Assembly: GCA_947626655.1 (NCBI GenBank)
Contig: CANQTA010000001.1
Span: forward strand, 22,750-86,749
Source of the DNA: an uncultured Bacilli bacterium
GTDB taxonomy: Bacteria; Bacillota_I; Bacilli_A; RF39; UBA660
Reading direction: 5' to 3'
Length of the DNA stretch: 64,000 nucleotides
A model generated the notes under the pieces. That model made no database searches. It was not told the origin of the DNA and worked only from the letters and a program-made list of their open reading frames with translations. Positions within the stretch are counted from its first letter, which is position 1, and each line of letters begins with the position of its first letter. Positions 4,769 through 61,362 of this stretch are shown here, piece after piece. Position numbers and translations under genes: made by a program.

Positions 4769-6391
4769 ATGAATGATTATTCAGAAAATAATGAAGAAAA
4801 AATTAAGGAAGAAGAACATAAAGATGGAATGCGACATTTTTTGGTTTATGCAATTATTTTTGTAGCAATATTGATAATAGCTGCGATAACTGCTACCTTT
4901 GCTTATTTTACCGCTAATGTGGATATGACTAATAGTAGACCAACTAATATTGTTGGTACTACCGAATGCATTGATGTGCAATTTGAAGTTGAAAGTGATG
5001 CTGATGGTATTGAATTACCATTAAACTATCCGATTAGTGATGAATATGCCATGGAATATGGCCATGTAAAACCAGTTACTGTAAAAGTAATTAATAAATG
5101 TACTAATGAAAAACAAGAACCTATTGATTATACTTTGGCTATTACAACAGTTGGTAATAATCCTACTGAAACTGATAAGGGATCTATAACTGATAATAAA
5201 ATTAGATTTCTATTCGAAAAGGAAACAAAGAGTACTGGCGAACTAACTCAACCTGAAAATCCTGATTATTTGACCAGTTTAGATATTTTAGATTCAATGT
5301 CTACTAACTATACTTTAATTAAACAAAGTTTTTTAAATGAACATCGGATTAATTTAAGTGATTATAGTTGGTCAAATATATATAAGATAGATGCGGACAG
5401 TATTGCGACTAATTCAACTAATGTTTATAAAATCTATTTATGGATTGATTATTATGAAGGGGATGCTGATGCTTACACAAGTGGTACTCATACAAGCGAG
5501 GGGTATGATAATTCTACTAAGGGGCAAACATTTAAATCATTAATTAGCCTAGTAGTTAATAATAATGAAAATGCTACTGGTAATATAGATAATTATATTT
5601 GGACAAAGGCTATTACAGGTGGTGAACAAGTAATTGCTAAAAATCCTCAAGGTTTAGTTACTACCACAGATGAAAGTGATTTAGTACGAAGATTTGTGGG
5701 TACAGATGTTAATAATTATATTTGTATAAATAATGAAAAATGTGAAGAAAATGATGAATATATGTATCGAATTATTGGTTTGACTGAAGATGGCAAATTG
5801 AAATTAATCAAAGCAACTCCTTATAAAGAAAGTGCTTCTATTGCTTGGGATACTAGTTATACTACTGATAGACAATGGGGTGTAACTACATTAAATAGTG
5901 AATTAAATGCACCAAGCTTTTTAAGTAATCCTAGTTATATTCCAGAAATATTAAAATCAAAAATAATATTAAATAATTGGAAACAAGGTTTAGTTGTTAA
6001 TAACGAAGAAGAAGGGGCAGAAGAAATAACGGCAAGTGAAATAATTACAGGAGAAAATAGTGCCGTTGATACTATATCTCGTCATATTGGACTTATGTAT
6101 TTAAGCGATTATGCCTTAGCTACTTCTAGTAATGAAACTAGTTGTGTTAGTACTACTTGTGATAATTGGTTAAAAGATACAACAAATACATTATGGACAA
6201 TGACTCGTTATGGTAAAGAAAAAACTAATAATCGTTATAGTGCTTGGACAATAAAAACTGATGGAACTGTTACTCATACAAATGTTGATCAAACCAATGT
6301 AGTTTATCCAGTTTTCTATCTACAATCTAATGTAACTATAAGAGGTGGCGATGGTTCTATAACTGATCCAATGATTGTTATATTCCAATAA
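4769..6391 (+). CDS. surface/secreted protein, intact member of a paralogous family (540 aa); N-terminal signal anchor, Thr/Asn/Ser-rich
   Basis: RBS aagggtga. A cytoplasmic N-tail is followed by the TM helix FLVYAIIFVAILIIAAITATFAYF. The C-terminal half is clearly homologous to the 60086.. and 40841.. products (shared blocks YICI..C..NDEYMYRIIG, LKLIKAT, HIGLMYLSDY, CDNWLKD, VYPVFYL..GGDGS..P). Confidence 0.7.
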   Translation: MNDYSENNEEKIKEEEHKDGMRHFLVYAIIFVAILIIAAITATFAYFTANVDMTNSRPTNIVGTTECIDVQFEVESDADGIELPLNYPISDEYAMEYGHVKPVTVKVINKCTNEKQEPIDYTLAITTVGNNPTETDKGSITDNKIRFLFEKETKSTGELTQPENPDYLTSLDILDSMSTNYTLIKQSFLNEHRINLSDYSWSNIYKIDADSIATNSTNVYKIYLWIDYYEGDADAYTSGTHTSEGYDNSTKGQTFKSLISLVVNNNENATGNIDNYIWTKAITGGEQVIAKNPQGLVTTTDESDLVRRFVGTDVNNYICINNEKCEENDEYMYRIIGLTEDGKLKLIKATPYKESASIAWDTSYTTDRQWGVTTLNSELNAPSFLSNPSYIPEILKSKIILNNWKQGLVVNNEEEGAEEITASEIITGENSAVDTISRHIGLMYLSDYALATSSNETSCVSTTCDNWLKDTTNTLWTMTRYGKEKTNNRYSAWTIKTDGTVTHTNVDQTNVVYPVFYLQSNVTIRGGDGSITDPMIVIFQ

Positions 6392-13994: not shown

Positions 13995-14188
13995 ATCTTG
14001 TAAATTAAATTTTTATATGTTTCCCTAACGGACCACAACATTAAAAATTTTGTCTGACGATTTTTGCTTTAAATTATAATAATTTATGATTAAATAAAGT
14101 CTTGAAGCGCGAGGTTAACGCCACCTACCCAAATTCAGTGGGGTTTTGGTTGAAATACTAAAAACTTAATGAAGGGGTGATGGTAAAA

Positions 14189-14395
14189 TGAGTGCTAAGA
14201 CAATGAATTTTGTATTATCATTTATTATTTTGTTATTAATATTTCTTATATTTATACTAATAATAAAAGACGTTCACGGTCAACCATGATTACTTGTATA
14301 ATGCGTATGCGGTACGCCCAGTCTTCTATCTTCAATCTACAGCAACAATAACGGGAGGAGAAGGGAAATTAGGAAATCCATATATCATAAATTAG
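14189..14395 (+). pseudogene. decayed remnant of the surface-protein family: N-terminal signal anchor joined out of frame to a C-terminal ~45-aa module
   Basis: RBS gaaggggtgatgg then an ATG giving MSAKTMNFVLSFIILLLIFLIFILIIKDVHGQP*. One nucleotide out of frame, the read continues as KTFTVNHDYLYNAYAVRPVFYLQSTATITGGEGKLGNPYIIN*. This matches the family C-terminus VYPVFYLQSNVTIRGGDGSITDPMIV. The segment is richer in GC than its surroundings. Confidence 0.55.
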
Positions 14396-14686
14396 TAGAT
14401 ATAAATCGCCCAGGGCAGCAATAAAATAAGTTCGGTTCGAAGAGCACTAACCATTACCTTTGATGGTGTGGTGGGATGGGCCACAGAAAAATATTTGATA
14501 AAGTACAATCCCCAATATAAATATTATTTAGTATATACAATCATCAACGAAGACGTTAAAATAGCCATTCATTTCACGGAAATAGATAATTATTCATTTA
14601 TTTCTTTTTACTTGCAAACAAAAGTTTAAAAAACAAGTTGCATAAAAAAGTATTGTATGATAATATATACGTTAGGTGGTATTTCT

Positions 14687-17600
14687 ATGAAGCATTTATT
14701 AAATAATCCAACAATAACATCAATTATAAACCCTAGAGATATTATAAAAGGAAATCTATATAATCCGCAATTTATTTCATATTTAGAAACAGAAGATTAT
14801 GGCTTTCAAGAAAGTTCTTTTTTAGTTAAAAGTGAACATTCCAATACTAGATATAAAGTAGAGATTGATGTAGATGAAAATAATAATGAACTTGTTGCTT
14901 GCTTTTGTACTTGTCCGATATTTAGAGAAACAAATAGTTGTAAACATATTGGAGCAGTTTTAGCAAATTATTATGATATCTTATTTAACATTACAAACGT
15001 TAATGAAATATCCGAAACTTTATTAAATAAATTTTATAGTGAGAGTATAAATAAAGTTCGTAAAGAAGTTAATATCCTTTTTGAAATAACTACATATGAT
15101 AATTATAGATATTATTATCAAGATACGTTTGATGTTAGAATTTCTATAGGGTTAGATAAAATGTATAATTTAAATAATAAATTAAACCGTTTTTTAGAAT
15201 ATTATGAAGGTGAAAATGGTACTTTTAAATTTGGAAAAAATTTTGAATATGATTCCAGTATCCATTATATAGCGAAAGAAAACATTAAAGCCTTAGAAGC
15301 ATATCATCAAATGTCAGATACTTATCATTATGATAGATTTAAAAGAGTTAAAGAGTTTTTAAAAACATTAAAAAATATAAAATTTATTATAAATAATTAT
15401 GTTTGTAATGGTATAAAAGAAGGATTTCCTCTTAATTCCTTTTTAACTAAAAACGAAAATGAATATCAAGTTAAATTTGATTTAGATAATTTAAAAATGT
15501 TAATTAATGATGATTATGAATATGTATTATATCAAAATTCTTTATATCATTTGAATAAACAAGAGCGAGTCTTATTAAAAGATATTGTTGATAATAATTT
15601 AGAAGAATTAAAAATTAAAAAAGATAATTTTAATAAATTTACAAAAGGATTATTTAATATTTTAAAAAATAATATTGAGATAGATGGTAATATTGATAAT
15701 ATAGTAATTCCCAAAAGTATTGCGACAGAAATCTATTTTGATTTAAGAGAAAATATGATTAAAGCACAACCAAAGTTTAAATATGATGAAGAAGAAGTAG
15801 AATATTTTGATAATAATTCACTAGTTTTAAGAGATATGTCTTATGAAAATGAAGTAATAAATGATTTATTAAAGTATGGTTTTATTTTAGAAAATAAAGA
15901 AATTACTTTAAGTGATTTAGAAAAACAAGTAGAATTTATTGAAGATGGTTTAGAAGAATTAGCCAGTAAGTATGTTATTTTTACGACGGAAAAATTTAAA
16001 AATACCAATATTCGTAAGAAAACCAATATTAGTTCAATGTTTGGAATTGGTCAAGATAATATCTTAAGTTATAATTTTGATTTAGGGGATATTAATAGTG
16101 AAGAATTAGTTAATATTTTTAAAGAAATTAAAAATAAAAAGAAATATTATCGTTTAAAAAATGGGGATATATTAAATTTAGAAGATGAATCTTTACAAGA
16201 GTTAGAAAATTTAGTGGAAGATTTAGAATTTAGTGACGAAGATATTATTAATGGTAAAGGAAATATTTTAAAATATCGAGCAATATATTTAGATAGTTTA
16301 AAATCTAGTAAATATAATATTATTAAAACTGATAATTTATTTGATAATTTTATTAGTAATTTTTATGCTTATAAGAATAGTGAACTTACTTTAACTAAGA
16401 AAGATTTAAGTAAATTGAGAGATTATCAAATAACAGGAGTAAAATGGTTATATAATTTAGCGAAAACTGGTTTTGGGGGTATTTTAGCTGACGAAATGGG
16501 TTTAGGAAAAACTATTCAAGTAATTTTTTATCTGAAACAGATATTAAAAGAAAATAAGGATGCCAAATTTTTAGTAGTTGTTCCTACTAGTTTAGCTTAT
16601 AATTGGGAACATGAATTTGAATTACATAGTAATGATATTAAAAGAGTAATTTGTACAGGAATAAAAAGTAAAAGAGAAGAAATATTAAGTAATTTAGATA
16701 ATGTTAATGTAATAGTTACAACCTATGGTTTATTAAGAGAAGATGAAGATTTATATTTAGATAAACATTTTCATACGATAATTATTGACGAAGCCCAAAA
16801 TATTAAGAATAATTTAGCGGGAATAACCAAAGTAGTAAAGAAAATAAATGCTGATACTAAATTTGCTTTAACAGGAACTCCTTTAGAAAATTCGATTTTG
16901 GAATTATGGAGTATTTTTGATTTCATTATGCCGGGATATTTAGCAAAATTAACAAAATTTCAAAGTAAATATCGGATAAAAGATTTTGATGAAGATAGTG
17001 AAAAATTAATTAAAGGTTTAAATAGACAAATAAATCCATTTATATTAAGAAGAAAAAAGACAGATGTTACTAAAGAATTACCAGATAAATTAATAAATGA
17101 TATTTATATAGAATTAGCTCCAGAACAAAAGAAATTATACGTTGCGGAGTTAGAAAAGGTTAAAGAAGAAATTGATAATCTTATGCAAACTGAGGGGATG
17201 ACTAAGGTAAGATTTTTAATTCTAACCCTTCTTACTAAATTAAGACAATTATGTATTGACCCAAGTATTCTTTATGAAGATTATAATGGTGGTTCTAATA
17301 AAATAGATACTCTTGTTAATATAGTAAATGAATATACGAAAAATAATCATAAAATATTAATATTTTCTTCTTTTAAAACCGCTCTAAATATTGTTAAAAA
17401 GACTTTAATGGATAATAAAATAAATAGTTATATGATTGATGGTTCTGTTAGTTCCCTAAAGAGAATGGAAATGGTTGATGATTTTAATAATAAAGAAGAT
17501 GTTAAAGTATTTCTTATTATGTTAAAATCTGGAGGTACTGGTTTAAATTTAACTAGTGCCGATGTTGTAATTCACCTAGATTTATGGTGGAATCCTCAAG

Positions 17601-17830
17601 CAGAAAATCAAGCAACAGATAGAGCGCATCGTATTGGTCAAACTAAAAATGTTGAGGTAATTCATTTAGTTACTAAAGGAACTATTGAAGAAAAAATATT
17701 AGATTTGCAAAATAAAAAAAGAATATTAAGTGATAAGATAATTGATGGCGAAGTTAGAGATAAAAATATTATTAGTGATTTAACTAAAGAAGATATTAAA
17801 AACCTTTTAGCTTTTGAAAATAAAAACTAA
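14687..17830 (+). CDS. SNF2-family helicase with N-terminal SWIM zinc finger (YwqA-like)
   Basis: SWIM motif CFCTCPIFRETNSCKHIGAV. SNF2_N motifs ILADEMGLGKT and DEAQNIKN, helicase-C motifs and QATDRAHRIGQ. The RBS taggtgg places the start at 14687. Confidence 0.85.
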   Translation: MKHLLNNPTITSIINPRDIIKGNLYNPQFISYLETEDYGFQESSFLVKSEHSNTRYKVEIDVDENNNELVACFCTCPIFRETNSCKHIGAVLANYYDILFNITNVNEISETLLNKFYSESINKVRKEVNILFEITTYDNYRYYYQDTFDVRISIGLDKMYNLNNKLNRFLEYYEGENGTFKFGKNFEYDSSIHYIAKENIKALEAYHQMSDTYHYDRFKRVKEFLKTLKNIKFIINNYVCNGIKEGFPLNSFLTKNENEYQVKFDLDNLKMLINDDYEYVLYQNSLYHLNKQERVLLKDIVDNNLEELKIKKDNFNKFTKGLFNILKNNIEIDGNIDNIVIPKSIATEIYFDLRENMIKAQPKFKYDEEEVEYFDNNSLVLRDMSYENEVINDLLKYGFILENKEITLSDLEKQVEFIEDGLEELASKYVIFTTEKFKNTNIRKKTNISSMFGIGQDNILSYNFDLGDINSEELVNIFKEIKNKKKYYRLKNGDILNLEDESLQELENLVEDLEFSDEDIINGKGNILKYRAIYLDSLKSSKYNIIKTDNLFDNFISNFYAYKNSELTLTKKDLSKLRDYQITGVKWLYNLAKTGFGGILADEMGLGKTIQVIFYLKQILKENKDAKFLVVVPTSLAYNWEHEFELHSNDIKRVICTGIKSKREEILSNLDNVNVIVTTYGLLREDEDLYLDKHFHTIIIDEAQNIKNNLAGITKVVKKINADTKFALTGTPLENSILELWSIFDFIMPGYLAKLTKFQSKYRIKDFDEDSEKLIKGLNRQINPFILRRKKTDVTKELPDKLINDIYIELAPEQKKLYVAELEKVKEEIDNLMQTEGMTKVRFLILTLLTKLRQLCIDPSILYEDYNGGSNKIDTLVNIVNEYTKNNHKILIFSSFKTALNIVKKTLMDNKINSYMIDGSVSSLKRMEMVDDFNNKEDVKVFLIMLKSGGTGLNLTSADVVIHLDLWWNPQAENQATDRAHRIGQTKNVEVIHLVTKGTIEEKILDLQNKKRILSDKIIDGEVRDKNIISDLTKEDIKNLLAFENKN

Positions 17831-27828: not shown

Positions 27829-29631
27829 CTATTTGACACTCTTAGTTCTTTTTAAAGTTAAATTAACTTGTTCGTAAGGTTGGCGACAATATACTTGGCC
27901 ACCAATTTGTAATTTAGATAATACTTCATCCGTTGGCAAATAATTACAAATTAAATCACCTTGAATAACAATTTGTTCTAAATTTTCAGTATTGGTGATA
28001 CTTTGCATAATTAAATTACCCCCAATAAATTTCAGACTTTTTAAATCTTCTAAACTAGTTAGATTATTAAAATCAGCATCGTTTCCTATGTATTTTAAAT
28101 TACCTAAACCACGGGCATCTTCTAAATTAGCAAAAGCTGCCATGCCGCCAATTATTTCTAAATTCTCTAAACCTTGGGAACTTTTTAAATTGTAAAAATG
28201 AGCTGCGCTACCAATATATTTTAAATTAGGAATACTTAAAGCATTATCTTTTAATGAATTACCATTAAGATAATTAGTAACTCTTATTAAATGAGGGTAA
28301 TTAGCATTTGCTTCTAAATATAAAGAACCGACTACAAACATCAAACTAGTAATTTCTTTTTTTAAAAGGCCATAATAACACAAAGTATCTGCATTTATAT
28401 TATTTAAATTGGTAGCTACATTTAGAGGACTTAAACTAAATATTTTAGCTAAATCAATAGTTATATTACGTTTTTTAATCATCAAAGATAAGCGAGGGTC
28501 AATTCCATAACCAAAATATTTTATTTGGTAATCAATTTCATATAAACAACTTAATTCTTGATCATTTAACTCTTTACCACTTAAAAATTTTTCATAAATA
28601 GTTGTAATTATAATGTTATCATTTAATTTTGATAAATAAACAGCAGCATTTGAAAAATCTTTAATTTTAGTAGCTAAAACTTCTTGAAGACAAGGCTCAA
28701 CATTTTGATTGCTATCTTGGATTCCTCTTATCTCTTGAATTTTATTATTTTGTACTCTAATGGCAATTCGAGGAATAGTATAATTATTTTCTTCATCTAA
28801 AGTATAGTAGATGTAAAACTCACTAACTTCTAATTGTTTTTTAGCCGTTTCTAGATTAGTTGTACACCAACAAGTATTATATCCTTTTAGAGAATTAGCT
28901 AACAATTGATAATCTCCATGTTGCGGATAATAAAACCACTTCCCTTTTTGATTAATATTTTGATTAGCTAGATATTCTTTTTCACAATAGAAATAAGTAA
29001 ATATTTTCGGAAAGTTATAACTAGCAAATAAAGAGGTTAAAGATCCTAAATTATTTCCATTTAAGTATTTTACTAGTAAATCAAATATCTTTTCTATTAA
29101 ATCTGGTTGAATTTCAATAAATGGAGCGATTGTAGATAAGGTGCGCCTTCGAAAACTTTTTGTATCTTTATTATATGTTCCTAGTTTAATAAGACCTTGA
29201 AAAGCCCAAAATTTAAAAAAATATGGATAGTCTTTTTGATTAAAATATGCTAACCATTGCTCTAAAGAATTTTGAGCGTTTTTAATTACCTTTATAGTTT
29301 CTGTTTCTAATTCTTGGTTTGTCAATTTAGTAGCCATACTATTCATTAAAGTAAAAGAATTTTCATAATAATTACTGGGGATATTGGTTGACTTAATTAC
29401 ATATCTTTTTTGATAATACATGGTTAAAATTGGTCTATCTTTATAATAGTCTGACAATTTTTGCAATTTATTCAAGTAGACCCTTATTTCGTTAATTTTT
29501 TCTTCGCGAGAATTAAATTCTCTCTCTTTTAATAAATTATTTCGTACGGCTAAATCATATAAATAATTATAAAATTTTTTTGTTAATTCATTCATGGTAA
29601 TAAAATTAGCTTCTCTTTCTGATAAGTTCAT
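27829..29631 (-). CDS. large hypothetical protein (600 aa) with C-terminal BspA-type leucine-rich repeats
   Basis: The C-terminal ~130 aa carry repeating NLKYIG..AF.NL..L..LE.IGG units, typical of the LRR5/BspA class. The N-terminal 450 aa are uncharacterised. Last gene of a four-gene operon; its start overlaps the upstream gene by 26 nt. Confidence 0.6.
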   Translation of the reverse strand: MNLSEREANFITMNELTKKFYNYLYDLAVRNNLLKEREFNSREEKINEIRVYLNKLQKLSDYYKDRPILTMYYQKRYVIKSTNIPSNYYENSFTLMNSMATKLTNQELETETIKVIKNAQNSLEQWLAYFNQKDYPYFFKFWAFQGLIKLGTYNKDTKSFRRRTLSTIAPFIEIQPDLIEKIFDLLVKYLNGNNLGSLTSLFASYNFPKIFTYFYCEKEYLANQNINQKGKWFYYPQHGDYQLLANSLKGYNTCWCTTNLETAKKQLEVSEFYIYYTLDEENNYTIPRIAIRVQNNKIQEIRGIQDSNQNVEPCLQEVLATKIKDFSNAAVYLSKLNDNIIITTIYEKFLSGKELNDQELSCLYEIDYQIKYFGYGIDPRLSLMIKKRNITIDLAKIFSLSPLNVATNLNNINADTLCYYGLLKKEITSLMFVVGSLYLEANANYPHLIRVTNYLNGNSLKDNALSIPNLKYIGSAAHFYNLKSSQGLENLEIIGGMAAFANLEDARGLGNLKYIGNDADFNNLTSLEDLKSLKFIGGNLIMQSITNTENLEQIVIQGDLICNYLPTDEVLSKLQIGGQVYCRQPYEQVNLTLKRTKSVK

Positions 29632-39996: not shown

Positions 39997-40733
39997 ATGG
40001 AATTGAGTTTAGTTAAAAAGGCGTTAATTACCCCAAAAAAGATGAATTTATCAGGAAATTTATATCATAAAACTCAAATAGATTTTGCTTATAATAATAA
40101 TTATATTGAAGGCTCAACTATAACACCAGATGAAACAGCTAGTATTTATGATACAGGGACAATTTTAACAAGTCAGGATAAAGTAATTGTTTTAAAAGAT
40201 GCAACCGAAATCAAAAATCATTTTACTTTATTCAAATATATGTTAGATACAATTGATGATAAACTTTCTGAAAGCATGATTAAAAAATTTCATTTTATCT
40301 TAAAAGATGGTACTTTAAGTGATAGTGAAAAAGAATGGTTTAATGTGGGCGAATATAAAAGTAAGAAAAATTTTGTTGGTAATATTACTACTTCTTCATC
40401 CAAAAATGTTGCCAAAGATATGCAAAAACTTCTTAATTGATATGATAAGATTGCTAAAAAAGCATAGAAGATATTATAGAATTTCATGTTCGCTTTGAAA
40501 GTATTCATCCTTTTCAAGATGGAAATGGGAGAGTTGGCAGAATGATTATGTTTAGAGAATGCTTATATAATGACATAATGCCTTTTTATATTGAAGATAG
40601 AAATAAAGACTTCTATATTAGAGGCATTAAAGAATATCAAACTAATCACGAAAAAGGTTATTTAATCGATACATGTTTAAATAGTCAAGATAATTATGAA
40701 AAGCTAGCTAAATATTTTTTAGAAGATGATTAA
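39997..40733 (+). pseudogene. fic: Fic/Doc-family (AMPylase/toxin) gene disrupted by frameshift and stop codons
   Basis: The N-terminal ORF 39997..40440 ends at TGA. The Fic active-site motif HPFQDGNGRVGR (HPFx[DE]GNGRxxR) is read in a different frame (40458..40733), with in-frame stops at 40438 and 40455. Confidence 0.65.
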
Positions 40734-40840: not shown

Positions 40841-42196
40841 TTAACTGCTTTGCAAATTTATTCTCCATGGACTTTCTTTACTTCCATCTCCACTTTTGAT
40901 TGTCGCTTCTGATTTGAGTACAAGGACCGGACGCACGCCATAGCTGTAGTAGTTCACGCTGACGCAGCTCACATAACCACTACTGCCGACAGTCAACGCA
41001 TAGTACGTAGCGTCGGCTTGGCGAGAAAGCGTCCATTCATTTACTCCATTATACAACCAATTCTCACTTCGATTTTCTTTTGTATTATAATAAAATAATT
41101 GAGTACTCCAATTACTTGGGGCTGATGCATAACCATACTCTGTAACATACATCAATCCTACTTTACTTGTTTGATATAATAAGGCATCTGTACATTGTAC
41201 ATAACTTTGTGAGTTATCTGTACATTGGCTTGATGAACTTGTTAATTTATTTGCTCCTAATTCATTATCATATGCTGCTTTCATACTACTTTGTCTTGTT
41301 ATATTATTATACGTATTTCCTCCAATATACCACTTTGTATTTTCTATTAAACTCGTATATGAGCTTAAACTTGTTAAATAATTTCCACTTTCATTGTTTA
41401 ATGTCTTATTCAATGTACTTGATATCCAGTTATTCCATGTAATAGAACTATTTCCACTCCAATAAAAACCTACTGCATTTGTTACATCTGCTCTTGGAGT
41501 ATAATCTGTTGCTGTTGTATATTGTGATAATATTTTTGATGTTAATCCTCCTCCTAATTCAGCTTCTGTTATATACTCACTTTTTATTATCTTCATTTCA
41601 TATTTTGTTGGCTCTCCTTCTTTTGGAAACCATCCTATTACTCGATATAATTTAGTTGTATCACATACTCCATCACCATTATTATTACCATCTAAACATA
41701 CATAATTATTTGGATTATTGCCTGCAAATCGATAACTATTATCTCCAGCTTCATTAGCACCATATGTTCCTTTTCCATCATGATATACTAAATATCCATC
41801 ACCAGTTGATAATTTAGTAGTATCATCTACATATTCTGGTAATACTTTTGATACTTTTAAATCAAAATACAAATAACAATAAGCTGTTATTCCTGTATCT
41901 ACAGTTGCTATATGATTTTCTTCATCATATGTTAAGATTTCTTCTTCTATTTTATTACCATCACCATCTATACATCCTGACATTGTTTTATTAAATGTAT
42001 ATCCTTCTTCTGGCCAAGTATTTCTTTCATCGGCTACATAGGTACTTGTTCCATCTTCTTGTTTTTGCTCTAAATACATAGCAAACATATTCTTATCTAC
42101 TATATTATTTAATTTTACATCATATAACTTATTATCTTTTTTAGCAAAAGACATATAGTTTATAATTATAATTGTTAATACCACTGGTATTAACAA
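40841..42196 (-). CDS. surface-protein family paralog 2 (451 aa from an internal TTG); native ATG at 42264 is out of frame because of a 41-bp tandem duplication, putative phase-OFF allele
   Basis: Homologous blocks with 4769.. and 60086.. (YVCLDG..C.TTKLYRVIG, GLMYVTEYGYA, YGVRPVLVLKSEATIKSGDGSKESPW). The track ORF starts at a TTG with no SD. An SD-preceded ATG at 42262-42264 reads MKFNKRYLLLLIPVVLTIKDIFYC* and then terminates. Confidence 0.6.
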   Translation of the reverse strand: MLIPVVLTIIIINYMSFAKKDNKLYDVKLNNIVDKNMFAMYLEQKQEDGTSTYVADERNTWPEEGYTFNKTMSGCIDGDGNKIEEEILTYDEENHIATVDTGITAYCYLYFDLKVSKVLPEYVDDTTKLSTGDGYLVYHDGKGTYGANEAGDNSYRFAGNNPNNYVCLDGNNNGDGVCDTTKLYRVIGWFPKEGEPTKYEMKIIKSEYITEAELGGGLTSKILSQYTTATDYTPRADVTNAVGFYWSGNSSITWNNWISSTLNKTLNNESGNYLTSLSSYTSLIENTKWYIGGNTYNNITRQSSMKAAYDNELGANKLTSSSSQCTDNSQSYVQCTDALLYQTSKVGLMYVTEYGYASAPSNWSTQLFYYNTKENRSENWLYNGVNEWTLSRQADATYYALTVGSSGYVSCVSVNYYSYGVRPVLVLKSEATIKSGDGSKESPWRINLQSS

Positions 42197-42256
42197 TAAA
42201 AGATATCTTTTATTGTTAATACCACTGGTATTAACAATAAAAGATATCTTTTATTG
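42171..42256. repeat. perfect 41-bp tandem duplication (2 copies + 4 bp) containing palindrome TTGTTAATACCACTGGTATTAACAA
   Basis: Unit attgttaataccactggtattaacaataaaagatatctttt occurs at 42171-42211 and again at 42212-42252. 41 is not divisible by 3. The unit encodes the LLLLIPVVLTI signal-anchor segment. Confidence 0.9.
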
Positions 42257-42344
42257 AATTTCATAAACTCTTCTCCTTTTTATTTTTCTATTTCAACTAA
42301 ATTATAATACATTATTATTCTAAAAATCAATAGATTTTAAGCAA

Positions 42345-52720: not shown

Positions 52721-53548
52721 TTAATCTTTATTTTTTTGAACATTAATGCTACTTTCTAATTTTTGGATTTCTTCCTCCTTTAAACCAGTAATTTCTTCTA
52801 TATCTTTGATTGTCATGCCTTTCTTTAACATATTTTTAGCTATTTCTAAAGAATTATCATGTCTAGCATAACGTTCTCTGGCTTCTTGAATCATTTTGGC
52901 TTCTTCTTCATAAGATACTAATCTTGTTATACTATCATCATCATTGATTACAAACATTTTTTCCTCGACCTCCCTTACTAATTTATCTTGCTTACTTAAT
53001 TTTTCTATTTCTTCTTTACTAGCACTTAACATTACTAAATAGATATGTTCTAAATCCCCTTGGATATTTTTATCATACCACATTCTTTTATATTCTACAA
53101 GATTGACATTGATTATCCGAATGTCTTCACTATATACCCCACCATTTATTCTATCTATTAACATATAATCTTCTTTTAAATGACCAATATCATTATAATT
53201 TAAATTGATTTGGATTATTTTATTATCTTCTAATAATTTACCTTTCTTTGCTATTTGACTACACAAAGTAGCTAAATAGATAATATTTCTTTTCTTTATT
53301 ATTTCATCAAAACAAGGATTTACTTCCACATTTATTGTTTCATGATTTTCCGTTTCTACTACAACATCTAAGACATTTAATTTCATCCCCATATTTAGAA
53401 TTGGTAATTCAGTTGGTTTTACTATTTTAATAGTTATTTTTTCTTCTAAAATATCACTAATTATTTTTTCTAATAATTCATTATTATCATTTAACATAAT
53501 TGTCTTAAACATTCGATCATTATTCAAAGTATAAAATTTTTTACGCAT
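52721..53548 (-). CDS. Rpn-family PD-(D/E)XK recombination-promoting nuclease / putative transposase
   Basis: N-terminal NDRMFKTIMLNDNNELLEKIISDIL, a central D...(V)E.Q PD-(D/E)XK-like core (LDVVVETENHETINVEV) and a C-terminal KGMTIKDIEEITGLKEEEIQKL tail typical of this family. Confidence 0.5.
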   Translation of the reverse strand: MRKKFYTLNNDRMFKTIMLNDNNELLEKIISDILEEKITIKIVKPTELPILNMGMKLNVLDVVVETENHETINVEVNPCFDEIIKKRNIIYLATLCSQIAKKGKLLEDNKIIQINLNYNDIGHLKEDYMLIDRINGGVYSEDIRIINVNLVEYKRMWYDKNIQGDLEHIYLVMLSASKEEIEKLSKQDKLVREVEEKMFVINDDDSITRLVSYEEEAKMIQEARERYARHDNSLEIAKNMLKKGMTIKDIEEITGLKEEEIQKLESSINVQKNKD

Positions 53549-54129: not shown

Positions 54130-56267
54130 ATATCCATCACTTCAATTCCTTTAAATTTAGCAATTTGTTTTTTAAATTTATCTAACTCATCTTTATCTTT
54201 AACCCGTACCATAACCGTACATATTACTCCTTCATCAGTATCATGGTTTTTAATCTCAGCTATAGCTATTTTCATTCTAGTAGATTCACTAATTAAATCC
54301 ATTAAAAAGTTTGAATTATTAGTACTAATAATTTTAACAATACTGTAATAAGTATTATTACAATTAGGATTCCATTCTACTTTAATTAATTTATCTTCTT
54401 TATGTATAACATTATTACAAGTACTTTTATGAACAGAAACACCTTCTCCTTTTGTAATAAAACCTACTATGGCATCACCTTTAACTGGCATACAACATTT
54501 AGCTAAAGAATAAAGAATATTAGTATTACCATCGACAATAATATCATCTTTAGTATTAGCTAAATTCTTTTTACTAACTCTTTCCATTAAGACATCTTCA
54601 ACATTATTTTTATCTTCTTTAGTTAAATTAATAATGTAACCAGCAGTAAAACGTAAAGAACCAATTGATAAATACAATTCATCTAAATCATTCATTTTTA
54701 AATCAGCAAAAATTTTCTTTAAATTATTATCATTAATAATATCATTAAAAGATAATTTTCTTTTTCGAATTTCTTTTTCTAAAATATTTTTACCTTTCGC
54801 GATATAATTTTCACGATCTTTTTTACTAAAATAAGATTTAATCTTGGATTTTGCTTGTTGTGTTTTAACAAAATTTAACCAATCTTCATTAGGAGTAGCA
54901 TTTTTATTAGTAATAACCTTTACTATATCATTATTTTGTAAATTATAAGATAAAGGGACAATATTATCATTGACAATCGCTCCGACGGTTGTATCACCAA
55001 TCCCACTATGAATACGATAAGCAAAATCGACTGGAGTAGCATCTTTAGGAAGTTCTATAACATCACCCTTAGGGGTAAAAACATAAATTAATTCTCCTAA
55101 AAGATTAGCTTCCATGGATGAAGCAAAAGATGTGTCAGATTCATCACTATTTGTTTCAATAATATTACGAAACATTTCTAATTTTTGTTCCATAATTGCC
55201 TGAACTTTTTTCGTTCCTTTTTCTTTATATGACCAATGGGACGCGATACCTTTTTCTGCTATTTCATCCATTTCATAAGTTCGCACTTGAACTTCATAAA
55301 CTTCGCCATCAGAACCAAACACAGTAGTATGTAAACTTTGATACATATTTTCTTTAGGATTAGCTATATAATCTTTAAATCTTTTAGGAACGGGACGATA
55401 TTTAGAATGGATTAGTCCAATAACCCGATAACAATCAGTTTCTTTTTCTACGAATATTCTTAAAGCTAAAATATCATAAATTTGATCCCATCTTTTTCCG
55501 TTATTTAATTTATTATAGATACTATAAACACTTTTAACCCGACCCTTTATTTCATAAGGAATATCATTTTCTTGTAATAAATGTGATAAACTTTCTTTCA
55601 TTTCTTCTAAGTTATCATTAAGTTCTAAGGTTGTTTTATTAAGTCTTTCTAAGATATCTTCATAAACACCTGGTTTTAAAATTTTTAAGCATATATTCTC
55701 TAATTCACTTTTAATAGAATTAATACCTAAACGATGTGCAATTGGAACTAAAACAGCCATAGTTTCCCTAGCTTTATCTTTTTGTTTTTCTTCTTTGACA
55801 GCCCAATTAGTTCGCATATTATGTAAACGGTCAGCTAATTTTAAATATAAGACCCGTGGATCTTCAGCTAAACCTACTAATACTTTTCTTAAATATACAG
55901 CTGATACTTCTGAATCATCCATTAATTCTAATTTATTAATTTTAGATACACTATCGACAATTAAAGCTACTTCACTTCCAAATTCTTTTTCAATATCTTC
56001 TTTCGTAATATCATCACTACTATTTAAAACTTCATGTAATAAAGCAGCAATAATAGTTATATCATCGACATTTAAATCGATTAAAATATTAGCAACATGT
56101 AATGGATGTGTAATAAAAGGATCTCCGGATAAACGATAGGTACCTTCATGGACTTTTGAAGCATAAAGATAAGCTTTCTCAATTTTATCTAAAGAATCTT
56201 TATATTTATCTATTAATCTTTTTTTAACTATTTCATATGATATAAATTCATCATGCATTATCATCAT
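54126..56267 (-). CDS. relA: bifunctional (p)ppGpp synthetase/hydrolase Rel (RelA/SpoT family)
   Basis: HD hydrolase domain (HPLHVANIL...DRLHNMRT), synthetase domain (ALRIFV.., YQSLHTTV), TGS and ACT domains, 713 aa. Confidence 0.9.
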   Translation of the reverse strand: MMIMHDEFISYEIVKKRLIDKYKDSLDKIEKAYLYASKVHEGTYRLSGDPFITHPLHVANILIDLNVDDITIIAALLHEVLNSSDDITKEDIEKEFGSEVALIVDSVSKINKLELMDDSEVSAVYLRKVLVGLAEDPRVLYLKLADRLHNMRTNWAVKEEKQKDKARETMAVLVPIAHRLGINSIKSELENICLKILKPGVYEDILERLNKTTLELNDNLEEMKESLSHLLQENDIPYEIKGRVKSVYSIYNKLNNGKRWDQIYDILALRIFVEKETDCYRVIGLIHSKYRPVPKRFKDYIANPKENMYQSLHTTVFGSDGEVYEVQVRTYEMDEIAEKGIASHWSYKEKGTKKVQAIMEQKLEMFRNIIETNSDESDTSFASSMEANLLGELIYVFTPKGDVIELPKDATPVDFAYRIHSGIGDTTVGAIVNDNIVPLSYNLQNNDIVKVITNKNATPNEDWLNFVKTQQAKSKIKSYFSKKDRENYIAKGKNILEKEIRKRKLSFNDIINDNNLKKIFADLKMNDLDELYLSIGSLRFTAGYIINLTKEDKNNVEDVLMERVSKKNLANTKDDIIVDGNTNILYSLAKCCMPVKGDAIVGFITKGEGVSVHKSTCNNVIHKEDKLIKVEWNPNCNNTYYSIVKIISTNNSNFLMDLISESTRMKIAIAEIKNHDTDEGVICTVMVRVKDKDELDKFKKQIAKFKGIEVMDI

Positions 56268-60085: not shown

Positions 60086-61162
60086 CTATAATGCTATTTT
60101 AAATGGATTACTTGTTGTTCCTTCTCCAGACACCTTTATATCGGCTGAAAGATAGAAGACTGGATAAGCTGCATTAGAATTATTTGTATCCCAGTGATCA
60201 AGACTGCCAGATGAAATTATTAACCATGCACCATATCCGTCATCACCACGAAACCGTGTTATTGTCCATTGATTATTAGATGAATCTTTTAACCAGTTAT
60301 TACATGATGATGTAGATTGACAATTTGTTGTTCCTGCATTATTTTCGGCATAATAATAATCACTTAAATACATTAAACCTATTTGCGTACTTGTATTATC
60401 TTGTGTAGTATTTTCTGCATCATATACTTCTTGCCCGGTATTTGTTTCGGTTGATACTGAACCTTGGTTCCAGCTCATATTTATTATCTTTGTTTTTAAT
60501 GTTTGAGGAATATATGATGCATTATTTAAAAATGATTCACTATTTAATTCTGTTCCTAAATCACCTTGACTCCATTGATAATCTAAGTAATAACTTGAAT
60601 TCCACATTGTTGATGTATTATAAGCAGTTGCCTTAATTAATTTTAAATTTCCTTCACTTGTTGTACCAATTATTCTATACAGATAATTTTCATTACATGT
60701 TCCTTCTCCTACATTGGGATCTATACATATATAATTATCTACTTCTGTTCCAACATAACGATATTGTAAACTTCCTGTATTTGTTTCTTGTAAGCCTTTT
60801 GATTTCTTATTGGCAACATAATTTCCACCTAATAATGTTTTTTCATCGAAATATAAATAGCAATATACCGTTTGACTACTTGTTACTGTTACTTTATTAT
60901 TATCATTTGATAATATTCCCTCTATTTTTTTGCCATTACTATCCATACAACCACTTTCATCTAAGTTTAATGTATATAGATTACTATCTGGAAACATGTC
61001 ACTTCCTGTGTATGGTTCATATTTATCTTCTTTTTTTACATACATAGCAAATGTATTATCTTTTCTTACTTGATTTTTAATCTTTACTTCATCTACTGCC
61101 ATTTTATTATTGCTCTTATCTGGTATAAGTATTATTATTGTTGATACTAATAGTATCAACAA
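60086..61162 (-). CDS. surface-protein family paralog 3 (358 aa from an internal TTG); native ATG at 61230 is out of frame because of a 41-bp tandem duplication, putative phase-OFF allele
   Basis: Strong homology to 4769.. (YICIDP..C.ENYLYRIIG, NLKLIKATAY, QIGLMYLSDY, CNNWLKDS, AYPVFYL..GEGTTSNPFKI). An SD-preceded ATG at 61228-61230 reads MKKQLKYFSLLILLVSTN* and then terminates. Confidence 0.6.
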   Translation of the reverse strand: MLILLVSTIIILIPDKSNNKMAVDEVKIKNQVRKDNTFAMYVKKEDKYEPYTGSDMFPDSNLYTLNLDESGCMDSNGKKIEGILSNDNNKVTVTSSQTVYCYLYFDEKTLLGGNYVANKKSKGLQETNTGSLQYRYVGTEVDNYICIDPNVGEGTCNENYLYRIIGTTSEGNLKLIKATAYNTSTMWNSSYYLDYQWSQGDLGTELNSESFLNNASYIPQTLKTKIINMSWNQGSVSTETNTGQEVYDAENTTQDNTSTQIGLMYLSDYYYAENNAGTTNCQSTSSCNNWLKDSSNNQWTITRFRGDDGYGAWLIISSGSLDHWDTNNSNAAYPVFYLSADIKVSGEGTTSNPFKIAL

Positions 61163-61220
61163 ACTAAAATATTTTAGTTTGTTGATACTAATAGTATCAA
61201 CAAACTAAAATATTTTAGTT
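61138..61220. repeat. perfect 41-bp tandem duplication (2 copies + 1 bp) containing palindrome TTGATACTAATAGTATCAA
   Basis: Unit ttgttgatactaatagtatcaacaaactaaaatattttag occurs at 61138-61178 and again at 61179-61219. It encodes the LLILLVSTI signal-anchor segment. The unit length (41 bp) matches the 42171 locus. Confidence 0.9.
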
Positions 61221-61362
61221 GTTTTTTCATTATTAACCTCTTTCTTTATTCTCATTATATACTGCATATCTTGTTTAAATTATATCTATTATTTTTTAAT
61301 AAGTCAATTTGTTTGTTATATGTTTTTATTCACTTTACAACAAAAAACTGCTCATCACAGTT

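Follow-up and report, generated by a model that had tools for sequence, protein, structure and literature searches.

Reversible tandem duplications within the reading frame have been described for the capsule genes cap3A, cap8E and tts of pneumococci (Waite et al. 2001, 2003, as cited in PMC4243769), and this is the closest described mechanism to the one treated in the present work. The subject is a window of 64,000 nucleotides (nt) from an uncultured Bacilli bacterium (assembly GCA_947626655.1, contig CANQTA010000001.1, positions 22,750 to 86,749), and in it three paralogous genes, called A, B, and C. In B and C a 41-bp unit within the membrane-anchor codons is duplicated exactly and in tandem and, as in the pneumococcal system, the duplication in the open reading frame (ORF) corresponds to the OFF state and precise loss of one copy restores the gene. 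At a probability of roughly 0.8 these genes belong to a phase-variable repertoire of lectin-like surface proteins, members of which are switched by the frameshift that follows from the copy number of a double-palindromic 41-bp cassette in the anchor codons.

The pneumococcal duplications reportedly vary in length and position and require no special sequence. The unit in B and C differs from duplications of that kind in being a fixed cassette at a fixed site in the anchor codons, in consisting of two perfect palindromes, in being conserved across paralogues and lineages, and in serving a multigene family. A change of repeat number in the first codons which shifts the frame is also known from simple-sequence-repeat contingency loci, and a mutable repeat whose copy number changes either the frame (B and C) or the promoter spacing (relatives, see below) is what was found here; the unit, however, measures 41–44 bp instead of 1–7 bp, occurs in one or two copies and not in many, and leaves the one-copy state free of repeats. 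In Mycobacterium tuberculosis promoter tandem repeats with units of 50–60 bp change their copy number at a frequency of 1e-2 to 1e-3 per chromosome and are phase-variable (PMC12817950). The size of the unit, tens of base pairs, and its change in copy number as a phase-variable element are alike in both cases, but the mycobacterial repeats are located in promoters, tune transcription, are not palindromic, and cause no frameshift. Searches of the literature yielded neither a palindromic cassette that changes between one and two copies within signal-anchor codons nor an account of this lectin-like family as phase-variable, and as far as could be found the double-palindrome switch, a two-palindrome cassette toggling between one and two copies, is a previously undescribed variant of duplication-based phase variation. 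The genes and the two switches are located as follows:

4769..6391, plus strand: copy A, intact, 540 amino acids (aa); anchor at nt 4829-4918; DUF6273-type lectin-like domain from about nt 5615
40841..42264, minus strand: copy B, Shine-Dalgarno sequence with ATG at 42264, stop at 40841; frameshifted (OFF) as sequenced
60086..61230, minus strand: copy C, Shine-Dalgarno sequence with ATG at 61230, stop at 60086; frameshifted (OFF) as sequenced
42175..42256, minus strand: switch of B, two exact tandem 41-bp units (42256-42216 and 42215-42175), with five equivalent phases
61139..61220, minus strand: switch of C, two exact tandem 41-bp units (61220-61180 and 61179-61139)

An initial annotation made from the letters of the sequence had credited only A with a Shine-Dalgarno sequence, an ATG start and an open frame. 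The frames of B and C are indeed broken, but both genes have strong starts, AAAGGAGAAGAGTTT-ATG in B and AAGAAAGAGGTTAATA-ATG in C, which had been missed as internal TTG codons were taken for the starts. The palindrome and duplication ascribed to the two OFF copies turned out to be the exact 41-bp tandem duplication present in both of them. A was rightly said to lack these features: its 5' end contains no palindrome, no duplication, and no long homopolymer, and A, having no switch, is presumably constitutive. The duplications begin ten to eleven nt after the ATG, the units fall into codons 4-31 of B and C, and exact tandem duplications of this size occur nowhere else in the 64 kb. As 41 is not divisible by three, the second unit shifts the frame and translation stops after 24 codons in B (stop at 42192-42190) or 18 codons in C (stop at 61176-61174). 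When one 41-bp unit was deleted in silico, uninterrupted ORFs of 460 aa (B) and 367 aa (C) were obtained, and the N-termini repaired in this way, MKFNKRYLLLLIPVVLTIIIINY... in B and MKKQLKYFSLLILLVSTIIILIP... in C, are normal signal anchors.

The 41-bp unit consists of two abutting perfect palindromes of 18 and 23 bp with no leftover bases. In the palindrome phase these are ATAAAAGATATCTTTTAT and TGTTAATACCAGTGGTATTAACA in B, and AACTAAAATATTTTAGTT and TGTTGATACTATTAGTATCAACA in C. Two tandem units form a still longer palindrome, which is near-perfect and 63 nt long in B (arms 31, loop 1) and 59 nt long in C (arms 29, loop 1). In single-stranded form the unit is predicted to fold into two hairpins which cover all 41 nt with no unpaired flank (dG -9.7 and -10.9 kcal/mol; z = -5.7 to -6.5; none of 200 shuffled sequences folded as well), and for the palindromes of the two-unit state a dG of -33.5 kcal/mol was calculated. 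Perfect palindromes with arms of at least 9 nt number 13 in the window as compared to 3.3 expected from a first-order Markov model, and eight of the 13 lie inside the two 82-bp switches. Other palindromes of the window are unrelated to the switches, for example one at 54314-54333 inside a gene of 713 aa, whose translation resembles a RelA/SpoT-type (p)ppGpp synthetase. The units of B and C differ at 13 of 41 positions, and these are made up of six symmetric, mutually compensating pairs and the unpaired centre base, with not a single uncompensated change; the palindromic symmetry has thus been maintained although the encoded amino acids change. A consensus scanner in addition called terminator-like hairpins followed by a T-run on both strands at 61168-61214, where in the two-unit state of C the palindrome is followed by TTTAGTTTG (six overlapping calls, none in shuffled sequences), and the long palindrome of the OFF state may therefore also terminate transcription.

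Both copy numbers of the cassette were encountered in other loci (P numbers denote proteins, L numbers loci or contigs). Contigs 100% identical to the window are contained in the Logan assemblies of ERR10663710-13 and in the ENA assemblies ERZ27248994 and ERZ27249265. Two further paralogues of apparently the same strain, P0011 and its neighbour P0060 on L003 (ERZ27248994 NODE_3204), have two 41-bp copies of the C-type unit, and their 5' regions are 96–99% identical over 140–274 nt. While the P0011 locus has two units in ERZ27248994, it has one unit in ERZ27249265 (L087, NODE_3127). The two contigs measure 10,153 and 10,112 bp, a difference of exactly one unit, and are otherwise 100% identical over 7.6 kb. 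L087 encodes P0176, the repaired version of P0011 with 559 aa, which is present in a collection of 15 billion proteins. At P0060 two units are seen in both assemblies. A second lineage (loci L004, L005, L093, and L101) uses a 44-bp unit of 22+22 bp which is unrelated in sequence and of the same design. It is found in two tandem copies in two genes (L004/L005 and L093), and the metagenome 3300029305 of the Joint Genome Institute (JGI) contains both P0183 (L101) with one 44-bp unit, the ON state, and P0020 (L004) with two units, the OFF state.

Cassette, boundaries, and position are constant in at least seven loci, and in all the OFF genes the downstream ORFs are intact for 350–735 codons. Within each gene the two copies of the unit are 100% identical, whereas units of different paralogues have diverged, a combination not easily accounted for unless units are repeatedly lost and regained, or converted, and one which suggests that the switch is reversible. 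That it is live in family members is supported by the exact, restorable duplications together with the occurrence of ON and OFF alleles in the same strain. Logan contigs of ERR10663711 and ERR10663712 extend from truB through a single unit of C and end 17 nt beyond it, but as k=31 is shorter than the unit and as the C-type cassette is common to three paralogues this single unit is suggestive only. In ERR10663711 the contig of B breaks off after exactly 30 nt of the unit, the behaviour to be expected of a k=31 graph that contains a two-unit cycle.

Two related genes depart from the simple scheme. In P0025 (L094 400-480, NCBI GCA_964634865.1) a single 22-bp perfect palindrome (TTAATAATAGTACTATTATTAA) and a hairpin with 7-bp arms lie in the anchor codons, and the ATG with its Shine-Dalgarno sequence does not share the frame of the main ORF. 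P0025 may exemplify a third state of this type of switch, whether degenerate or different. P0306 (JGI), a member of the 90% cluster of P0020, is encoded by a gene more than 90% identical but has a wholly different, non-palindromic N-terminus, MKRKVIVNFFVVVLVLIIITSIF..., from which the 5' cassette seems to be exchangeable between alleles. Beyond these loci, a scan of JGI metagenomes for the consensus of palindrome P2, TGTTRATACYANTRGTATYAACA, gave five matches, all by chance in unrelated genes and free of duplication. In 80 GTDB loci the family genes had neither 5' palindromes with arms of at least 8 nt nor tandem duplications of 30–70 bp, and the 41-bp type of switch thus appears to be restricted to a lineage.

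The paralogy of A, B, C and a fourth, truncated copy within the 64 kb had been proposed, for A, B, and C from shared sequence blocks, and was corroborated by tblastn inside the window. A and C are 43% identical over 264 aa (E=2e-56), B and C 29% over 466 aa (E=2e-22), and A and B 26% over 332 aa (E=2e-11), and a C-terminal fragment of 38 aa of the remnant (14276-14389) matches A with E=2e-5. The remnant is located as follows:

14188..14395, plus strand: family remnant, Shine-Dalgarno sequence with ATG and a hydrophobic anchor ORF of 33 codons (14188-14289), followed by an out-of-frame domain end

Its part from 14294 to 14395 corresponds to the last about 30 codons of the lectin-like domain (AYAVRPVFYLQSTATITGGEGKLGNPYIIN) in a different frame, and by its make-up it appears to be an internally deleted pseudogene. 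All the sequence blocks quoted for the family are present. The first reads YICINNEKCEENDEYMYRIIG, YICIDPNVGEGTCNENYLYRIIG and YVCLDG..KLYRVIG, listed in the order A, B, C; the second occurs as HIGLMYLSDY, QIGLMYLSDY or KVGLMYVTEY, and the C-terminal one as VYPVFYL..GGDGS, AYPVFYL..GEGT or VRPVLVL..GDGS. LKLIKAT and the full C.NWLKD are confined to A and C, however, with B having the weaker ENWLYN. That the blocks are no artefacts of low complexity follows from an exhaustive profile search, in which 8723 cluster representatives matched at E<=1e-3, 5274 at E<=1e-10, and 1207 at E<=1e-30. The richness in threonine, asparagine, and serine also holds, these residues making up 28–31% in the family versus 17.7% in nine housekeeping proteins of the window. 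What does not hold is the view of the N-terminal halves as one strongly diverged region, since in a full-length alignment A has a different module of about 270 aa, that is, a swap, and B and C share a small N-domain. The family is a mosaic: the N-domain of B is about 80% identical to that of P0060, with the lectin-like domains at 20–35%.

Word-indexed searches gave 57 and 157 matches to the family, and a scan of GTDB yielded 355 relatives, with more than 20 copies within one metagenome-assembled genome (MAG) from rabbit gut. These relatives come from MAGs titled 'uncultured Bacilli bacterium' from the guts of goats, rabbits, and other hosts, and the family proteins of the window are on record in NCBI too (113.5-kb contig). 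By anchor and fold the family would be a large, uncharacterised one of N-terminally membrane-anchored surface proteins of gut Bacilli, comprising thousands of clusters and previously unannotated. Gene callers mis-start or truncate its genes (for example P0008, P0011, P0060, and P0175), and together with the breaks of assemblies at family genes this means that such repertoires are systematically under-annotated in MAGs. In five loci (L066, L072, L074, L078, and L081, at about 2840-2900) a family gene having no G tract is preceded by a sequence ending in ...C-Y-A-Y-F-N-K-stop, which looks like the end of another ORF of the N-domain type and suggests tandem or operon-like arrays of family modules.

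The shared C-terminal part of about 250 aa had been left without a named domain and regarded as a scaffold. A, B, and C themselves have no match in Pfam at E<=1 and nothing significant in NCBIfam, but five of 32 aligned family members match Pfam DUF6273 (PF19789; best E=1.8e-7) and several homologues carry a precomputed match to it. In other homologues the lectin-like domain is fused to a type IV pilin N-terminus with PARCEL/DUF285 repeats, laminin-G or glycine-rich domains. An AlphaFold model of C was obtained with a pLDDT of 85.7 and a pTM of 0.80, and in the model of A the C-terminal half has a pLDDT of 85–94. The best Foldseek match of the C model in the PDB is 9qa6, the N-terminal domain of the IgA protease of Thomasclavelia ramosa (E=3e-4, probability 1.0, 294 columns), followed by a weak match to 8q4e, the C-terminal domain of Legionella Lcl (E=0.24); classical C-type-lectin-like domains such as MBP, CD23, and CD94 match at E>1 only. 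Through 9qa6 the model of C resembles the solved structures of DUF6273 and C-type-lectin-like domains. The N-terminal domain of the IgA protease has been described as an enlarged, double-sized C-type-lectin-like domain with no assigned function (PMC12237041) and as DUF6273 (PMC12402451), and DUF6273 domains form the variable heads of phage receptor-binding proteins (PMC10743442).

The conserved C-terminal part is thus, as judged from the models and from the DUF6273 matches of some family members, an enlarged C-type-lectin-like domain of the DUF6273 type, and with this fold it is most likely a ligand- or glycan-binding head rather than a scaffold. An extracellular context is shared with the IgA protease domain, with Lcl and with the phage 'tentaclin' targets of diversity-generating retroelements (PMC10743442), and for Lcl and the phage receptor-binding proteins so is a ligand-binding role. 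Unlike in these proteins, the domain is fused here to a membrane anchor and either a small cysteine-containing beta domain (B and C) or the module of about 270 aa (A), and variation arises by phase switching and mosaicism and not, as in the tentaclin targets, by a retroelement. B and C start with a short basic N-terminus, which is followed by one hydrophobic helix and a beta domain of about 90 aa with two invariant cysteines. A has a long anchor or signal (residues ~21-50) with the motif ATFAYFTAN and then the beta-rich module (residues ~50-280). The motif resembles the SipW-dependent signals of the TasA/camelysin class, but A was not assigned to this class as it scored 14.7 bits against model TIGR04088 where the cutoff is 19 (E=0.025, residues 30-55). 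Membership among the type IV pilins or pseudopilins was considered because some homologues carry N_methyl, and was rejected since A, B, and C have no match to N_methyl (PF07963) or its G|F-x-x-x-E motif; a true pilin N-terminus fused to the lectin-like domain is found only in some distant homologues (P0034 and similar).

Relatives which do not contain the cassette also show signs of phase variation. Homopolymer tracts in promoter spacers act as switches in Mycoplasma hyorhinis (poly-A, Vlp) and Neisseria (poly-C/G, opc and porA), where, like here, each family member has its own ON/OFF or volume control. Classical tracts of this kind, G6-G10 between TTGAC(A/T) and TATAAT, are present in 37 of 58 type-2 genes of other MAGs (L010-L080), 32-44 nt upstream of the ATG (for example L052 2847-2875 and L036 ~2930-2990). 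Their length varies among near-identical paralogous promoters (G6 in two, G7 in four, G8 in 22, G9 in eight, and G10 in one), and only G10 gives a 17-bp spacer, the single G10 copy thus forming a perfect TTGACA-17-TATAAT. In 587 kb of fetched loci all 46 tracts of at least seven G are located at family genes, 45 of them in a promoter-like context and one in signal-peptide codons. The latter, a G9 tract at L095 326-375 (NCBI GCA_947631045.1, CANRJV010000019.1), breaks the frame and is of the same type as the simple-sequence contingency loci. The family member in question has a SipW-like 'SYAYYGG' signal and a 78-aa HTH_3/HTH_26 gene directly upstream. Many MAG contigs end exactly at promoter G tracts. 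These data support the view that relatives devoid of the cassette are phase-variable as well, by poly-G tracts in promoters or signal-peptide codons. The genes of the window differ from them, and from Vlp, opc, and porA, in that they have no G tract and are switched by a coding-region unit of 41 bp, which alternates between a single and a double copy. The promoter of C nevertheless shares a feature with those of the relatives:

61279..61307, minus strand: promoter-like site of C, TTGACT-17-TATAAT, 11 of 12 matches

Its -35 context, aaaTTGACTt, is common to the poly-G promoters of the relatives, and its spacer consists of A and T with no G tract. Taken with the restorable duplications and the one- and two-unit alleles of one strain, the poly-G relatives back the expectation of a variable surface adhesin repertoire with copies in ON and OFF states. 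Phase-variable repertoires are a hallmark of antigens facing a host or phages and are known mainly from pathogens and mycoplasmas.

The switch would work as follows. One unit keeps the frame (ON), and two tandem units shift it and lead to the stop after 18-24 codons (OFF), so that individual paralogues could be switched separately and B and C would both be OFF in the present assembly. A unit might be lost if the two 41-bp repeats misalign by slippage or undergo single-strand annealing. Such loss would be favoured by the hairpins, as looping out of any two adjacent ones (P1-P2 or P2-P1) removes exactly one unit, and by the 59-63-nt palindrome acting as a fragile site; long palindromes stall replication forks and are cut by nucleases of the SbcCD type. 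With a single copy there is no repeat on which slippage could act, and a unit must be gained by another mechanism. The nascent strand could fold into the two hairpins, misalign, and re-prime upstream, or, for C, P0011, and P0060 with their common C-type cassette and flanks, gene conversion from a two-unit paralogue could occur. Hairpin-assisted slippage is what we infer as the mechanism of the switch. If the hairpins do make gain and loss precise, the cassette would be a compact and portable ON/OFF element and a natural test case for DNA secondary structure directing duplication as well as deletion. It is a tentative idea, with chances somewhat short of even, that the double-palindrome cassette forms a new class of contingency element, in which hairpins programme the precise gain and loss of one unit, alone during replication or by way of a structure-specific nuclease. 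It would then be a reversible frameshift switch whose OFF state includes a terminator, and in one gut Bacilli lineage it would have taken the place of a poly-G promoter switch that was ancestral.

Several points weigh against a phase-variable lectin-like repertoire switched by the cassette. Different repeat numbers at one locus in otherwise identical genomes were found for P0011, the sister paralogue of C, and not for B or C, of which no direct one-unit (ON) allele was found; the repaired proteins of B and C, like those of P0060, P0020, and P0023, have no exact match in the 15-billion-protein collection. Just two one-unit alleles stand against at least seven observations of two units. The unit numbers were taken from assembled contigs, and Logan contigs at k=31 cannot reliably count 41-bp units at C. 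The step from one to two units has never been observed, and the microhomology flanking the duplications is just 1–4 bp. The predicted location at the surface and the predicted binding of a ligand are derived from anchor and fold, and the fold match to 9qa6 has a modest TM-score of 0.39 on the query, with no relative obtained in a sequence-profile search of the PDB with the whole type-2 family. Neither the N-domain of B and C nor the N-module of A has an assigned family, the latter being devoid of detectable relatives and giving only weak jelly-roll-like matches at E>1e-3 in Pfam searches of its members, a PDB profile search, and Foldseek.

One alternative, that B and C are ordinary decaying pseudogenes whose duplications are one-off mutations with no role in switching, could draw on the presence of a true family remnant and on the frameshift of B and C in every assembly of both loci seen. 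It is nevertheless very improbable, as at least six genes from two lineages, whose unit sequences differ, have this type of lesion at identical codons, as the copies are always 100% identical where units of different paralogues show 13 fully compensated differences in 41 positions, and as the downstream frames are intact and one-unit alleles of otherwise identical loci exist. Slightly less credible still is an origin of the duplications, or of their absence in L087 and L101, in the assembly process. Palindromes and 5' ends shared by paralogues do break assemblies, Logan contigs at k=31 terminate within the units or shortly beyond them, and the 5' ends of family genes coincide with the ends of many MAG contigs. 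The two-unit state, however, was recovered in the window, in two assemblies each from ENA (of SPAdes style, NODE_) and JGI, and in a further study of ENA, and L003 and L087 agree completely over 7.6 kb save for exactly one unit; if the largest k-mer exceeded 41, as the NODE_ naming suggests (for example metaSPAdes with k=55), k-mers with upstream bases specific to a paralogue extend across an entire unit and would discriminate one copy from two at each locus. A similarly slim chance is given to the idea that two-unit genes are not OFF at all since the ribosome bypasses one unit or reinitiates at an in-frame TTG in the second unit. Ribosome bypass has a precedent in gene 60 of phage T4, and in the present genes the duplication provides identical take-off and landing codons 41 nt apart, strong hairpins, and a nearby stop codon, with the TTG lying 12 nt after the upstream stop in C or overlapping it in B. 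But as one-unit alleles exist at the DNA level recoding is unnecessary, the stop follows the junction by 2, 8 or 9 codons in the three unit types and not beside a conserved take-off codon, the nascent peptide has just 17–25 aa, no Shine-Dalgarno sequence precedes the TTG, and a product started there would be devoid of the basic n-region of the anchor.

A more serious competitor, though still unlikely, concerns the agent and not the existence of the switch: unit gain and loss might be driven by a dedicated structure-specific enzyme instead of passive replication slippage. Sharing this same low likelihood between them, three kinds of enzyme may be thought of: a nuclease whose nicks, staggered by one unit, fall at the outer foot of each hairpin, a hairpin-binding enzyme of HUH/RAYT type, or a recombinase for which the 23-bp palindrome is the core site. 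In three unrelated units (18+23, 18+23, and 22+22) the duplicated segment coincides with the pair of palindromes to the base, the flanking microhomology is too short for efficient simple slippage, and the symmetry is conserved as expected for the site of a dimeric protein. A gene for a nuclease-family transposase is present in the window:

52721..53548, minus strand: PD-(D/E)XK nuclease family transposase, ORF of 275 aa, PDDEXK_2 model, E=1e-14

It is the sole nuclease- or recombinase-like gene among the few ORFs of the window scanned, and no link to the switches was shown. The switch genes have no candidate enzyme tied to them, B and C being surrounded by housekeeping genes, and template-switch correction is another process able to keep palindromes perfect. 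To our knowledge 41 bp are too short for intramolecular synapsis by known recombinases.

The window has a G+C content of 26.5% and in its remaining part codes mostly for housekeeping functions (obg, ruvAB, murG, hemN, truB, rbfA, infB, and holA, as identified from the translations), and a scan with Rfam yielded three tRNAs and nothing else. A CotE gene on a contig apparently of the same strain suggests a spore-forming Firmicute. Around the family remnant two stretches (14090-14150 and 14400-14480) are rich in G+C, which is unusual for a genome of 26% G+C, and have no Rfam match at the gathering threshold. Directly 3' of the remnant a SNF2-family helicase of 1057 aa is encoded (14657-17830, plus strand) with an N-terminal SWIM zinc finger and a bacterial SNF2-associated domain. 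Adjoining B, two ORFs of 147 and 63 aa (39997-40733, plus strand) resemble a single gene which a frameshift has divided. Pfam gave no match to them, and the idea of a Fic pseudogene, not being supported by Pfam, was dropped. At 28019-28228 two 84-nt direct repeats of 70% identity lie 126 nt apart (repeat-scan family D1), and they probably represent a repeat internal to a coding sequence.

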